NCBI GenBank assembly: GCA_963514005.1
Contig: OY740804.1
Span: forward strand, 21,328,001-21,392,000
DNA from: Raja brachyura
Taxonomy: Eukaryota
Length of the DNA stretch: 64,000 bases
Direction of reading: 5' to 3'
Of this stretch, positions 11,355-56,716 are shown piece by piece (position 1 is the stretch's first letter; each line of letters starts with the position of its first letter). Below the pieces are notes generated by a model. That model did not search any database. It saw only the letters and a program-made list of their open reading frames with translations, and was not told the origin of the DNA. The position numbers and the translations under genes are program-made.

Positions 11355-11586
11355 CACAGAACTGCAGATGCTGCTTTACGCCAAAGAAAGGTTTGAAATG
11401 CTGGAGTAACTCAGCGGGTCAGACAGTATCGCTGGAGAAAAGGAATAAGTGATGTTTCGGATCGAGATCTTTCTTCAGACCCTTTTCGGGTCGAGACCCT
11501 TCTCAACCTGAAATGTCACCTATTCCTTTTCTCCAGAGATGCTGCCCGACCAGCTGAGTTACACCAGCATTTTGTGTCTGTCTTCA
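11355..11586. repeat. Penelope-derived fold-back repeat
   Basis: Inverted arms (GCTGGAGTAACTCAGC...AGAAAAGGAATA / TATTCCTTTTCTCCAG...GCTGAGTTACACCAGC) around degenerate hammerhead-like cores. Confidence 0.65.
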
Positions 11587-14097
11587 TTGTTAATAATTTA
11601 TTTTATGTTGAACATAAGGGGGGGGGGAGAGATCTTTTACGGAAATAAAATTGGGAGAAAAAAAATCTCTGCTTTGATTGTCCGAGGGCATTCTTTGTCA
11701 ATACAGAACATGCTCAGGAGGTTCTGTGGCATCTAAGGAGACAAAGAAAAAAATGTTTTGTTGAAGGACCCATCGTAGGAGCTAGAACAAAAATGCAAAA
11801 ACAAATTGCAGAGCAGGCCTTATCTGTTATATGAAAGAAATAATAATTCAGTTCCCCCCCCCCCCCCCCCCCCCAAGCCAACACTCAAGTACAATAGATA
11901 GAGCATGGAAGACGATACAGAGTGCAGAACATAGTTCTCAGCATAGTTCCAGAGGAACTAACAATTCCAGAGGAAAAAGTTCAATGTCCACAACGGGGTA
12001 GGTTGGAGGATCGGATGTGTGTGTGTTTTTTTTCTACATTCTATCTACAGTATGTTCACCGAGGAATTGGAGAACTCCAAAGGCAGCCAAGTAACTAAAT
12101 TGATCTTTCTGCATTGTTATGGTTACAGAAAATTGAGATGCCCGTTCATACCCTTTCCAACACTTTCCATTTCGTGGAGAATTTGAACAAAATGGGTTTT
12201 CTAAAAGTACTTACTACTGCATCCATCATTTTTCATCCATAGGTTGTGTTTGTAAGATTTATTTTGGTAGCATGGGTATTCCAATACCCTTCCAAAAGTT
12301 ACAGAACTATATGATTTGAAAAGCAAAATAAAATGTCAATCAATATTTGGCCTGGTTCACCGCTGCAAGAAGATATGATTGTATTAAGAACTTTTCAAAC
12401 TTTGCTGCTGCCAGAAACATGGTGACTTTGTGCATTGCCTAGGTGAAATCTGCTGTATGATTTTACCAGATTGTATGTAAAAACAAAGAATTTCACTGGA
12501 CCTGGGTACAGGTGACAATGAAGTATCATCGATCCCGTTCAGTGCCAAAATGGTGGCCAGAGGGCTGTGTTCTGGGTTCTTCCAGTGAACAGGATAGGGC
12601 CAATTTTCTTCTGCCCACAGTGGCAAATGCTTTGTGTGGATTTCTGATTTGGCCTACTTACATTATGGCACAGGGAATTGAAACATCATAGGAATTATTT
12701 TAACTTGGAATCATGTTCGGTGCAGATATTGTGGGCCAAAGGGCCTGTGCTCCAAGCTCTATGAGAATTTGAAGCATAAAATGCTGGAAGGACCCAACTG
12801 GCAAACAGGGTGCCCAATAAAACAAAACAAAATCCAATGTTTTTGCTCTTATGAGTCATACTTTAAACTTTTGAGTTTAGAGATGCAGCGAGGAAACGGG
12901 CCTTCGGTCCACCGAGTCCGCGCAGACCAGCAATACACTGCGTACACTAGCATTATCCTGTAGTGTGAGAGGAAACCAGAGAGAACCAATGCAGTCACAA
13001 GGAGAACGTGAAACTCCATACAGATAGCACCCATTGAACCCAAATCCCTCGTGCTACCGTTGCACCCCTGATAGCTTGTGCCCCATATATCCACCTGCCT
13101 GTGGTCTGGCATCTGTTTACAAACAGCACCCCCTCATGATATATTCCCTCTTTTTCCCTTCCTCCCACCACCTTGTTTCTCTGCTTTAAGCTTTGTCGAC
13201 TCTTTCTGCCGACTTGTCTGCATCTGGCTGCATTTATCTGCTCTGCATTTTGCAATACCACCAATGTTTGTGTTAAACACGCACTTTGATGTTGTTACTT
13301 GTGGCCCCAGGTCGAGGTCATTAATGTAGGTCAAAGAGCCAATGGACCTTCCACTGATCACTGCGGGTGCTGAATTATTCACAGTTCACCAGTTCTCAAT
13401 CTGATGCAGGAAACAACAGTGATGGGTGAGTTTTACATCAGAATTCCATGCTCCCATCTGACCAGGGTGACCATGTTCATCAAATGTCTGTCCACGTCCA
13501 CTGAGAAATATTCAAAGACTCTGCCCCTTGAAGATGAGTTCTAAAGATTCGCAACTCAGAGAAGAAGAAAACTAGCCTTACCTATATCTCAAATGGGCAA
13601 ACCCTTATTTTTTGTATACTGAACTCTGGTTCTAGAATTTTCTGAACATCCTCTTCACATCCACTCTGTCAAAACCCCTCAGGATCTGACTTGTTTCAAT
13701 AAAGCAGCGGTAGAGTTGATGCTTTACGGCTCCAGAGACCTGGGTTCGATCCTGACTACGGGTGCTGTCTGTACGGATGTTCTCCTCATGACCCCCATGT
13801 ACTCCATCTTCCTCCCACGCTCCACAGATGCACAGACTTCATCGGCTAATTTGACTTTGGCAAAAACTAAATTGTTCCTAGTGTGTCAGTTAGTGCTTGC
13901 GTACGGGGATGACTGGTGGCACGGACTCAGTCGTCCGAAGGACCTGTTTCCACACCGTATCTCTGAACTAAAATCTCCAAAAGTTAACTGCAGATGCATT
14001 TTGATGTGATTTAAAGTTTACATTTTGTGTCTGACAATGACATTGCACATACGACGACACATTTTTACAAACAGTAAGAAGGGTCGACATTATCCTT

Positions 14098-14125
14098 CTG
14101 AAGAAGGGTCTCGACCCGAAACGTT
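14098..14125 (+). ncRNA. Candidate minimal hammerhead ribozyme core in a Penelope-derived repeat
   Basis: CTGAAGA-A-GGGT(CTCG)ACCC-GAAA-C-GTT: conserved core, helix II, and a palindromic ACGT in place of helix III. Confidence 0.5.
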
Positions 14126-14847
14126 GCCCATTTCCTTCGCTCCATAGATGCTGCTTCACCTGCTGAGTTTCTCCGGCATTTTTGTCTACCTTCAATTTTC
14201 CAACATCTGCAGTTCCTTCTTAAACACCTTTTTAAATGTTCAGTTGCTAACACAATCCTAGTTGTAAAACTAGTACCATTGTCCCACTGGCTGCATTCAA
14301 GACGGAGTTATAACCTCTGGCTGGAGGATATCTAAAGGCTTTATCACCTGGCCTCCAAAGTCATACATTTTCAACTCTTCCCTCATTGATATTAATTTCC
14401 AATGAGTTGTGCCCATTAAAAAAATATATAGACAAAAGGATACCAGTACACAAAAAATCAAGCTACATTAATTGGGGGAAAAATGTTGATCAATGTATAT
14501 TTTTGTAAGACCTTTATGGACCTCTTTATAATGGATTTTGATTTTAGCGGGCGGACCTACTTTGTGTCTTACTTTGGTATAAACCTACTGAATATCACCA
14601 GCAGGCCAGACAGACAACACCACCCCCGGCCTACTTCCCCACCCCATGCCTGCTGCCACCTGTATCGCTGTTTCGAGACAGACCTTAGAGCTTTGCAGCT
14701 CAGAGCAGGAAAGGCTTTGCTTTAATGTTTCAGCTGAGAAAAGGCACCTCTGTCAGTGCACTTCTTGCTCAGCCTACATTTTATTGGTGTGGTCTCTGCA
14801 CATGAAGTGCCATATATTACGCTCGGTTATATAGGACAATCAGCAAT

Positions 14848-15150
14848 ATGGTGGCGCAGCAGTAGAGTTGCTGCCTGACTCTGCTTGCAGCGCTGGAGAT
14901 ACAGATTCAATCCCGACAGGTGCTGTCTATACGGAGTTTGTACGTTCTCCCCGTGACCTGCGTGGGTTTTCTCAGAGGTCGTCGGTTTCCTCCCACACTC
15001 CAAGGACCTATAGTTATGTAGGTAAATTGCTTGGTAAATTTAATAATTGTCCCTAGTGTGTGTGGGATGGTGTTAATATGTGGGGATCGCTGGCCGGTGC
15101 GGTCCGAGTGGGCCGAAGGGCCTGTTTCCGCACTGTATCGCCAAACTATA
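14848..15150 (+). mobile_element. HE1-like V-SINE
   Basis: A-box TGGCGCAGCAG, B-box-like GATTCAATCCC, V-domain and CR1-type tail. Confidence 0.8.
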
Positions 15151-55061: not shown

Positions 55062-55232
55062 CTGGATTAGTTCTTGTCCTTCCAAGTCCCATTTCTTGAT
55101 TCCATTGTCTCTCGATCCACTGAACAGGATGTCGCCATGGATTCCCAGAGATTCAATCCCGTCGTAGTGTGGAGGCTCAAAATTATGTGTGGGACCAACA
55201 TTTCCCAGAGTACTCTCAGCTATTTCAAACTT
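55062..55232 (-). CDS. KIF21B: KIF21B WD40 exon (171 nt)
   Basis: [69 protein letters not shown]; phase 0/0. Confidence 0.96.
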
Positions 55233-55285
55233 CTGCAGAGCAAATAGATATTTGTCAGTACTTGAATATCTAAACATATTCCAAA

Positions 55286-55500
55286 GTAGATAAAAAATGC
55301 TGGAGAAACTCAGCGGGTGAGGCAGCATTTATGAAGTGAAGGAATAGGTGAAGTTTCGGGTCGAGACCCTTCTTCAGAAGGAGGTTCTCGACCCGAAACG
55401 TCACCTATTCCTTTGCTCCATAGATGCTGCCTCACCCGCTGAGTTTCTCCAGCATTTTTATCTACCTTCGATTCTTACAGCATCTGCAGTTCCTTCTTAA
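55286..55500. mobile_element. Penelope-derived fold-back element
   Basis: Inverted arms 55286-55465; near-duplicated flank TAAACATATT(C/A)CAA(A/G)GTA at 55271-55288 and 55498-55515. Confidence 0.8.
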
Positions 55501-56716
55501 ACATATTACAAGGTAATTTAAAAGGAATATAGGGTGCTGCAGATTAAACTCTGAAGAGATATCAGGCTAGAAATTTCAGATGCTGGAGTAAGTCAGTATG
55601 TCAGGCAGCATCTCTGCAGGACATGAATAGGTGATGTTTTGTTGGTTGGTTTTAGATTGATTTTTTGGTAAAGCAGCATCTGCAGTTCTTTGAATCCACA
55701 TGTTCCTGCTCTGCAGCAGAGTCTCAAGGTAGGCCTTCTTTGAAGAGGTTCTCCTCCATCCTGGATCAGTCTGAAACATCACTTATCCAATGTTCTCCAA
55801 AGATGCTGCCTGACCTGCTGAGTTACTCCAGCACATTGTGCCTTTTATGTAAACCAGCATCTGTATTCCCCTTGTTTCTACTGAATGCCTGGAGCCTTGG
55901 AGTTCATCGGCGGGGAATGGGTTCTGGAGGGATTGTTCAGGTGACATTTCAATCTTGATAGAAGTATATAAAATGATGAGAGGCATAGATAGGGTACCTT
56001 ATCTGTGTAGACAGCCAGAACCATTTTACCCAGGTTGGAAATGTCAAAGCCTAGAGGACACAGCTTTAAGGTGAGAGGGGAAAGCTTAAGGGAGATGTGT
56101 TTTTTATACAGCGAATGGTGGGTGCTTGGAACACACTGCCGGGGTAGTGGTGGAGGCAGATAGGATGGTGACTTTTAAGAGGCTTTTAGATAGGCACGTG
56201 GATGTGCAGGGAATGGGGGGGGGGGGGGTGGATGTGCATCACGTGCAGGCAGAGGGGATTAGTGTAACCATCATGTTCAGTATGGGCATTGTGGGCCGAA
56301 GGGCCTGTTCCTGTGCTATACTATTCTATGAATCTAAAAAGAGGTATATGGGGTGCTGCCTCCTAGTTCCTATGTTCGTGTAATCTCACTTGTTAATCTT
56401 TTCCGTAAGCAGAGCAGTACATGATACCGATCATGTGAAGGCTGAGTCTGAAGAAGAGTCCCGACCTGAAACGTCATCTCTCTATTCCCTCCACAGTTGC
56501 TGGTTGACCCGCTGAGTTCCTTCAGCAGATAGACACCAAGTGCTAGAGCAACTCAGCGTGTCAGGCAGCATATCTGGAGAAAAGGAACCCTTCTTCAGAC
56601 TGAATGATAAAGGTCTTCCAGCACTTTGTGTTTTAGATATCATGAAGGATTGCTTCAGGGAGCAGGGAGAGAGTGTGGTTCTGAAAGTGGAGCTTTGGAT
56701 CATGAAAAACCCTTAC

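Follow-up and report, generated by a model that had tools for sequence, protein, structure and literature searches.

A dense set of short Penelope-type end pieces with a minimal hammerhead motif in a 64-kb window of a skate genome

Minimal hammerhead ribozymes (min-HHRs) have been described from the pLTRs of metazoan Penelope-like elements (PLEs), where they lie behind the GIY-YIG end, mostly in single truncated copies and in opposite-strand pairs, and reach large genomic numbers (Cervera and De la Pena 2014, PMC4209133). In Poseidon of Anolis carolinensis (PAc) the hammerhead is located at the pLTR-ORF junction, two 3' ends define a tail about 100-130 nt downstream, and the targets are AT-rich (Frangieh et al. 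2024, PMC11167929). The Penelope families of Adineta vaga and PLEs in general form head-to-head inverted pLTRs and solo pLTRs, with a tail on one end and duplications of 8-10 bp (PMC3846280, PMC8557442), and inverted pLTRs with a tail of 30-40 bp are on record. Animal non-LTR retrozymes are likewise non-coding, pLTR-related and hammerhead-bearing, and form head-to-tail arrays in which successive units each have a complete motif (bioRxiv 10.64898/2026.07.22.740005).

The repeat unit found in a window of Raja brachyura DNA (the whole stretch analysed, 64,000 nucleotides) resembles all of these systems. With the min-HHRs it shares the core and its extra base, the G10.1-C11.1 pair, the GAAA, the 2-nt palindrome, the UH and the genomic setting; with PAc the junction position, the two 3' ends and the AT-rich targets; with the other PLEs the inverted and solo arrangement, the tail and the duplications. 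Its helix I of 2 bp and helix II of 4 bp fall at the short end of the range in PMC4209133. The skate pieces are shorter than the pLTRs of Adineta vaga (95-130 nt compared with about 200 nt), far denser, and start with a hammerhead. The PAc ORF starts in stem II, whereas the nearest conserved ATG in the skate, a candidate start, is 49-50 nt from C3. The unit is a short end piece of a Penelope-type element carrying an already described minimal hammerhead motif, and its two 3' ends, head-to-head pairs, target duplications and proximity to GIY-YIG are all published Penelope features. Table S1 and the text-readable alignment S3 of PMC4209133 contain no cartilaginous fish, and we found no hammerheads in skate Penelope elements in the literature; the one chondrichthyan genome of the 2026 preprint may hold the family.

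Each unit consists of the minimal hammerhead core and a further 70-105 nt. A profile search (E<=0.01) recovered 46 whole-unit copies, 29 on the plus and 17 on the minus strand, and none in the reversed window. They cover 4078 bp (6.4% of the window), one unit per 1.4 kb. The hammerhead pattern itself, allowing <=3 mismatches, occurs 15 times, with no occurrence in 100 dinucleotide shuffles of the window. An earlier sequence-only reading had reported over 15 copies, which is borne out and, in view of the 46 whole units, an undercount; a recognisable core is present at all 12 coordinates that it named. Four cores per 64 kb are intact and have helix II, a density that, if typical, would be above the 4,000-9,000 per genome of coelacanth and Xenopus (PMC4209133).

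The 3' ends are long in 20 copies, short in 20 and cut in 6, and the two alternative ends, about 35 nt apart, represent the Penelope "tail". Neighbouring units form 10 head-to-head pairs as opposed to 2 tail-to-tail pairs, besides 5 tandem neighbours (Table 1). The tail is on one arm in 7 of the 10 head-to-head pairs, which is within chance (P 0.16). A scripted flank comparison of 29 insertion units revealed target duplications with a score of 10 or more in two of them (12 and 13 bp; against 0.6% of mismatched flanks) and no clear duplication in the other 27. The pair at 22560..22760 is, with its flanking duplication, one insertion event. Identity with non-LTR retrozymes was considered and rejected: tandem neighbours have no second intact core, adjacent same-strand units are never both intact, and the nearest intact same-strand cores are 15-18 kb apart, with no close partner for a dimer.

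Table 1. Positions of repeat units, Penelope remnants and host gene in the window
Feature	Positions	Strand	Remarks
Best copy, short-ended unit	42848..42965	-	complete min-HHR anatomy, 2-bp helix I
C3 and predicted cleavage site of best copy	42960; after 42933	-	
Pyrimidine-rich spacer (3' UTR part of pLTR)	42961..43186	-	CAG end just before U2.1
Stop codon of GIY-YIG remnant	43184-43186	-	
Penelope GIY-YIG remnant, extreme C-terminal	43187..43245	-	
Second complete copy	32485..32588	+	C3 at 32490, start 5 nt upstream of C3; flanked by 12-bp duplication
Long-ended unit, intact core and helix II	14098..14225	+	helix I 1 bp, its 5' strand lost at junction
Unit, intact core and helix II	27974..28028	-	helix I 1 bp, deletion downstream
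Long-ended unit, core damaged	21735..21862	-	
Frameshifted Penelope GIY-YIG C-terminal remnant	22056..22246	-	193 nt upstream of C3 at 21862
Frameshifted Penelope GIY-YIG C-terminal remnant	47019..47193	+	194 nt upstream of C3 at 47388
Unit, core damaged (G12 lost)	47388..47498	+	antisense in last KIF21B intron
Head-to-head pair, long minus arm and short plus arm	22560..22760	.	13-bp duplication
Head-to-head pair, long and short arm	11360..11589	.	
Head-to-head pair and core-less tandem copy	24239..24554	.	
Head-to-head pair, two long arms	24858..25062	.	
Head-to-head pair and tandem copy	25507..25750	.	
Head-to-head pair, long and short arm	29319..29479	.	
Head-to-head pair	43291..43461	.	neighbour of 42848-43245 copy
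Head-to-head pair, then partial tandem with about 70 nt spacer	48491..48855	.	KIF21B intron; arrangement pLTR-like
Head-to-head pair, short and long arm	55279..55491	.	KIF21B intron; possible duplication, by eye only
Head-to-head pair, 126-nt gap	55563..55865	.	cores lost
Single short-ended unit	26507..26611	+	helix II closing pair broken
Unit, damaged core	28760..28876	+	about 50 nt upstream spacer
Long-ended unit, damaged core	31020..31197	+	about 50 nt upstream spacer
Plus-strand unit overlapping minus-strand unit	56448..56597	.	helix II mismatch (plus), core deleted (minus)
KIF21B, last six coding exons	45246..61887	-	14 unit copies within introns
KIF21B exons	about 61705-61887, 59177-59341, 56717-56830, 55062-55253, 50757-50978, 45246-45335	-	

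The Penelope origin proposed earlier is supported by three GIY-YIG remnants, whose frameshift-tolerant scores against a Penelope C-terminus profile (47.6, 38.7 and 40.9) compare with a maximum of 24.9 in 147 random stretches (mean 17.6, sd 2.5). On the remnants hmmsearch was weak (iE 0.04 and 0.17), as was tblastn (E 0.2-0.9, with similar values from a reversed control). GIY-YIG-like ORFs occur at the source loci of the profile (Pfam E 0.002-0.005, below cut-off), and their full-length relatives combine RVT_1 with GIY-YIG; 31 of the 36 C-terminus matches have the same core 81-164 nt downstream on the same strand. The 64-kb window contains no RT-bearing copy or full-length element, and about 60 broken codons are the basis on which the source element and its clade are inferred. 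As a protein query, the longest open frame in the remnant at 47 kb gave no match and no true relative, and Atlas matches for the remnant were all under 0.9. Two protein matches in a larger library, to an ankyrin protein and to another repeat protein, were discarded as repeat-summing artefacts. The remnants do not adjoin the hammerheads directly, as had been thought: in these three of the 46 copies the last ORF codons are separated from C3 by a spacer of 193-226 nt, which is 67-76% pyrimidine and whose AG end adjoins U2.1.

Gap-free alignment was possible for the cores of 24 of the 46 copies. All 13 core bases are present in 11 of these cores and in the family majority, with the CUGANGA / GAAA / UH core and one extra base after A9. 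Helix II has 4 bp with G10.1-C11.1 (81.8% of cells paired, 22 copies), and the palindrome 15.2-16.2 that replaces helix III is CG in the majority, with CpG-type decay in many copies. The min-HHR type that the sequence-only reading had recognised by its extra base and palindrome thus fits the published consensus (PMC4209133); Rfam hammerhead families gave no match in the window at the gathering threshold. The copies it had ranked best (14098+, 28001-, 32490+ and 42933-) are exactly the four of the 24 gap-free cores that combine 13/13 core bases and a CG palindrome with 4 bp in helix II. Its helix I of about 2 bp applies to 32490+ and 42933-, but not to 14098+ and 28001-, where helix I is 1 bp. 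Core, palindrome, helix II and 2-bp helix I occur together in only the former two, and the full anatomy is missing from the remaining 44 copies. The damage consists of a deletion in helix II at 24351, a mismatch in helix II at 26507 and 56448, affected core bases at 31072 and 47388, and loss of the palindrome at 33123, 36778 and 55350. A purine, A or G, occupies position 1.1 in 21 of 24 copies, and either base can pair with U2.1; the predicted probability of the 2.1-1.1 pair is 0.09 or less.

Covariation in the helices, proposed earlier as a check, did not exceed that of shuffles (38/500 for score, 194/500 for pairs) in the 22 alignable cores that remained of 24 after 17985 and 31072 were excluded for indels, in a test that is low in power since the decayed copies stem from few masters; in control hammerheads from other animals helix I covaries. 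Nor are core positions significantly better conserved than their flank, as a working family had been expected to show: non-CpG identity is 183/196 in the core and 532/592 downstream (P 0.16, 20 copies). The dimer fold lies 12-13 kcal/mol above the minimum-energy fold, a cost within the range of the control motifs (median 10.7, quartiles 8.6-13.0), and folding is therefore no proof that the family motif is dead. Sequence change in the unit copies looks neutral. Most copies are damaged and likely inert and decaying, not working ribozymes, and they may be dead-end 5'-truncated products instead of a self-propagating non-autonomous family. The term "ribozyme-bearing" is supported for the type of motif but not for activity, given 2 complete copies of 46, no covariation and no near intact partner.

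We consider it probable that the 46 units are 3'-terminal (pLTR) pieces of a Penelope-like element with the known min-HHR, inserted by the element's own RT/GIY-YIG protein and mostly inert. By analogy with the Anolis Poseidon protein (PMC11167929), the Penelope protein would nick AT-rich DNA. Reverse transcription would then start at either of two internal sites 3' of the hammerhead, yielding short and long ends, and priming on both strands would produce one inverted pair per insertion. Most copies end <=10 nt upstream of the core, likely at the 5' end of the RNA or at a preferred junction. Cleavage after GUC in a source element would be only weak, because helix I is 2 bp, with the motif acting either as a dimer via the ACGU palindrome or with help from the protein.

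It is conceivable, though rather unlikely, that the motif in the skate lineage is a relic that never cleaves and is kept within a protein-binding or promoter signal. The short helix I is consistent with this, as 99 of 126 control matches from other animals have at least 3 bp; so are the unimpaired in vitro insertion of hammerhead mutants of the Anolis PLE and the Naiads, which thrive without the motif. However, 2-bp cases exist in the published table and thus lie within the published range (PMC4209133), and the family majority, spanning subfamilies that differ visibly, retains all 13 core bases as well as the G-C closing pair and the palindrome.

The 5' boundary of the unit is sharp. Of 19 copies in which the first half of the core is intact, 12-13 have their 5' end no more than 10 nt from C3, compared with 10 of 83 copies in control families of other animals (Fisher P about 1e-5 to 2e-6), the control copies being chosen by exact pattern and five long-spacer references entering the comparison. 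A metagenome control set comprised 121 loci among the matches listed (122 stretches of about 740); none of these listed loci matches the window family's model at E 1e-3, and they therefore serve as controls and not as relatives. In run X19, loose ends whose flanks are unrelated concentrate at 42962-42964 (1033, 1124 and 730 contigs). Summed depth, which comes from contigs and is not a measure of copy number, is 1.4e7 over the core, drops to 5e4 less than 50 nt upstream of it, and is 3e5 at the ORF end. Plain random truncation is no explanation for this boundary. The TCAGT just before the core is presumably initiator-like. An Inr-like TCACT has been described from an Adineta pLTR.

These observations, together with copy 32490, which begins exactly at TCAGT within its 12-bp duplication, would also fit a self-propagating non-autonomous skate mini-element of 95-130 nt. 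Its short RNA would start at TCAGT, 3-5 nt before the core, and end at the Penelope priming sites; the Penelope protein would copy it in full, often producing two-armed inverted insertions, up to one per 1.4 kb. We regard this as unlikely: the 5' junctions of the units are scattered over several bases, many of them inside the core, five long-spacer references may miss spacer homology in other subfamilies, and the exact-pattern controls and the contig-derived depth have to be considered as well. If true, the unit would be a Penelope-driven equivalent of a SINE with its 5' end set by a ribozyme motif, and perhaps no repeat with such a motif would be more abundant in a vertebrate.

Completion of helix I by splicing, with the pyrimidine tract and CAG as a 3' splice site and an upstream exon adding a longer strand, is suggested by the composition of the spacer, by its AG end beside U2.1 and by the Penelope of D. 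virilis, in which an intron ends at the 5' end of helix I. This is improbable, however: no donor was identified for such a splice, splice-type ends at AG are absent from the 15 joints listed of 796 (contigs), and in D. virilis helix I has 2 bp in both forms (PMC4209133).

The presence of copies in introns, claimed earlier, holds for 14 of the 46, all in KIF21B (5 sense, 9 antisense); the 63 ORFs in the window with at least 100 aa revealed no second gene, although the 182 short unique ORFs listed between 6 and 45 kb may include one. One complete copy, at 42933-42960, has the sense orientation of KIF21B and lies 2.3 kb beyond its stop codon, and the first AATAAA, at 44265, comes before it. Four sequencing runs, consisting of contigs throughout, showed no site at which molecules start or stop in number, which speaks neither for nor against expression. 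Cutting of host pre-mRNAs or UTRs by a motif that is active at many of the dispersed copies, as a trans dimer or with protein help, would agree with the core bases kept by the family majority, the density of units, this sense-strand copy and the Anolis PLE hammerhead, which cleaves with protein present, but is very improbable with so few complete copies, none intact on the sense strand among the 14 intronic ones, intact same-strand cores 15 and 18 kb apart, the preceding AATAAA, published min-HHRs inactive as monomers and low in activity as dimers, RNA ends absent at the Anolis hammerhead site, and 8 of 9 Xenopus retrozyme dimers uncleaved.

As end pieces of a Penelope-like element, the skate units extend the 2014 min-HHR observation to skates, with a very dense example. 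Should the sharp 5' boundary mark a real RNA start, millions of genomic junctions would record how reverse transcription of Penelope elements starts and stops, a question still unsettled, and the 2-bp helix I would lend itself well to testing whether such motifs need the element's protein for cleavage.

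The hammerhead core in the skate DNA is the head of a repeat unit of 95-130 nt, as delimited by an iterated nhmmer profile. At E<=0.01 this profile recovers 46 unit copies in the window (29 plus, 17 minus), covering 4078 bp or 6.4% of it, and none in the reversed window. The sequence-only reading had claimed more than 15 core copies, which the profile bears out, and all 12 coordinates it named carry a recognisable core. Its pattern, with up to 3 mismatches allowed, gives 15 matches versus none in 100 dinucleotide shuffles. Rfam at the gathering score returned no match. Literature searches turned up no report of the motif in skates.

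The majority motif consists of a helix I strand, CUGAAGA, A, GGGU, a 4-nt loop, ACCC, GAAA, CG, UC and the second helix I strand. It fits the consensus of minimal hammerheads (min-HHRs) of metazoan Penelope-like elements (PLEs) given in the available part of PMC4209133, including the extra base after A9, the G10.1-C11.1 pair and the palindrome. The table in that part lists some min-HHRs with a 2-bp helix I, and no cartilaginous fish. Helix I of the skate family is likewise 2 bp long; at position 1.1, 21 of 24 copies carry A or G, either of which is compatible with U2.1. As a yardstick, metagenome contigs were scanned for the core (122 of about 740 stretches; 121 loci used), with helix I excluded from the search pattern. 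Among the matches listed, helix I of these controls reaches at least 3 bp in 99 of 126, versus 5% for random flanks, and its first three pairs exceed shuffled partners in 44 distinct contexts, the sequences being related and not independent. Because a helix outside the search pattern pairs above random and shuffled levels, we regard min-HHR cores as real structures.

Three unit copies extend upstream through a spacer of 193-226 nt (67-76% pyrimidine) into disrupted coding sequence that ends with F-S-x-F-K. Scored with frameshift tolerance against a profile of control C-termini, these remnants reach 47.6, 38.7 and 40.9; 147 random stretches have a mean of 17.6 and a maximum of 24.9. Simpler searches with the remnants (plain hmmsearch, tblastn, protein search) gave weak or no matches. 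The three Penelope GIY-YIG remnants proposed earlier are thus real by score, but the units do not follow them directly, the spacer lying between. Among the matches listed, an endonuclease-like C-terminus is present at 39 of the 121 control loci, and in 31 of the 36 matches reaching the C-terminal end it is followed on the same strand by the core, 81-164 nt further downstream. Two of these control ORFs match GIY-YIG with scores below cut-off, and longer relatives combine RVT_1 and GIY-YIG. A conserved ATG, 49-50 nt from the first C of the core (C3), opens a frame that starts MLPDPLSYSS; it may represent an ORF start, because in other PLEs the opening codons of the ORF lie within the terminal repeats (pLTRs).

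The 5' boundary of the unit near the core is sharp. Among 19 copies with an intact first core half, 12-13 match none of the five long-spacer copies for more than 10 nt upstream; among control copies that have family mates, the corresponding figure is 10 of 83 (Fisher P 1e-5 to 2e-6). Control selection through an exact pattern and the small number of reference spacers weaken this comparison. In contigs of sequencing run X19 aligned to 42700-43600, loose ends with unrelated flanks cluster at 42962-42964, 2-4 nt before C3 (among the matches listed). Summed X19 depth, which is not copy number, is 1.2-1.4e7 over the unit, 3e5 over the ORF end and 6-17 over unique flank. Candidate causes of the boundary are an RNA start at the initiator-like TCAGT, a splice acceptor or a preferred junction. 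The TCAGT before the core resembles the initiator consensus. Excerpts of PMC3846280 describe an Inr-like TCACT in an Adineta pLTR, and those of PMC4209133 a splice acceptor at a comparable place in D. virilis. We consider it improbable that the unit is a mini-element with a defined start.

Unit 3' ends are long in 20 copies, short in 20 and cut in 6, long and short ends lying about 35 nt apart. Neighbouring units form 10 head-to-head versus 2 tail-to-tail pairs; exactly one long arm occurs in 7 of the 10 head-to-head pairs, no significant excess over chance (P 0.16). Clear target duplications accompany 2 of 29 insertion units (null 0.6%); the 13-bp duplication flanks a head-to-head pair, which is therefore a single insertion event. 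The inverted pair 24840-25090 seems to hold duplicated flank past both tails, unlike other pairs. Known PLE traits include 5'-truncated copies in inverted orientation, a tail of 30-40 bp and duplications of 8-10 bp (PMC8557442, PMC3846280, in part). The Anolis Poseidon protein cuts and extends both strands, with two internal priming sites defining the tail of the element (PMC11167929, in part); the skate units would have been inserted by this same route. Among the matches listed, five of the 121 metagenome loci (L036, L042, L077, L096, L106) carry the core on both strands, so that families of other animals show an opposite-strand pairing like that of the skate units. A head-to-tail retrozyme array was rejected for the skate units.

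A frame at 56.7-56.8 kb matches kinesin KIF21B, the top match being a skate protein (97% over the piece searched). The suggestion that copies reside in introns holds for 14 of the 46, all in KIF21B (5 sense, 9 antisense); the other 32 lie past its stop codon, beyond which the first AATAAA stands at 44265 and the second at 41601, so that the suggested residence in UTRs is conjectural. No further host gene appeared in the 63 ORFs scanned out of 72 of at least 100 aa, and eight of the other nine lie in or at a low-complexity tract. At 52100-54400 a KIF21B intron holds a long low-complexity pyrimidine-rich tract with a periodicity of 15-16 nt. The LINE-type region contains a 300-nt duplicate (92%, 2.8 kb apart), and the Tc1/mariner remnant is flanked by 228-nt inverted repeats, 93% complementary. 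The second short repeat we take to resemble a vertebrate SINE.

Features of the window other than the hammerhead units
Feature	Position	Strand	Remark
Two broken LINE-type reverse transcriptase stretches	786-5760	plus	RVT_1, weak zf-RVT; AT-rich region
Second abundant short repeat, tRNA-like head	8766-8949, 20593-20776, 35545-35798, 54256-54430, 58503-58686, 61997-62265		also inverted copies
13-bp duplication	around head-to-head pair 22573-22760		
Repeat families resembling LINE 3' ends	26071-26286, 29100-29237, 48134-48310, 50179-50362, 51883-52098, 57389-57604, 61428-61611		
12-bp duplication	around 32490 copy		
RVT_1 remnant	34569-34985	minus	
Tc1/mariner-type transposase remnant	38877-40522		HTH_Tnp_Tc3_2, DDE_3
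KIF21B, last six coding exons	61887 to stop near 45246	minus	WD40 region; splice ends normal

The core is present at least in part in 29 of the 46 copies; 24 can be aligned without gaps and 11 retain all 13 core bases; six of these also keep the palindrome, four helix II as well, and two, 32490+ and 42933-, the full anatomy including the 2-bp helix I. No covariation measure exceeds shuffles in 22 window copies. Counted over the non-CpG positions of the 20 copies that span both parts, identity reaches 183/196 for the core, 119/136 for helix II and 532/592 for the downstream part (P 0.16), so that the core is not significantly better conserved than its flank in the window, part of the outcome which the sequence-only reading had set in advance against itself. 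Dead copies would be expected to show such a pattern even with a working source motif. The distances between intact cores of the same strand are 15 and 18 kb, and the two members of an inverted pair occupy opposite strands; therefore no cis dimer is at hand. The predicted 2.1-1.1 pairing probability is at most 0.09, and the modelled dimer lies 12-13 kcal/mol above the best fold, at the upper quartile of controls. In published tests min-HHR monomers were inactive and dimer activity was low (PMC4209133, in part), and one of nine Xenopus retrozyme dimers cleaves (bioRxiv 10.64898/2026.07.22.740005, in part). For the Anolis PLE hammerhead, the available sections of PMC11167929 describe cleavage as protein-assisted and dispensable for insertion, and report that RNA ends at the hammerhead site were not found. 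Judged by its sequence, the skate motif belongs to the min-HHRs of PLEs, and the unit would work like that class.
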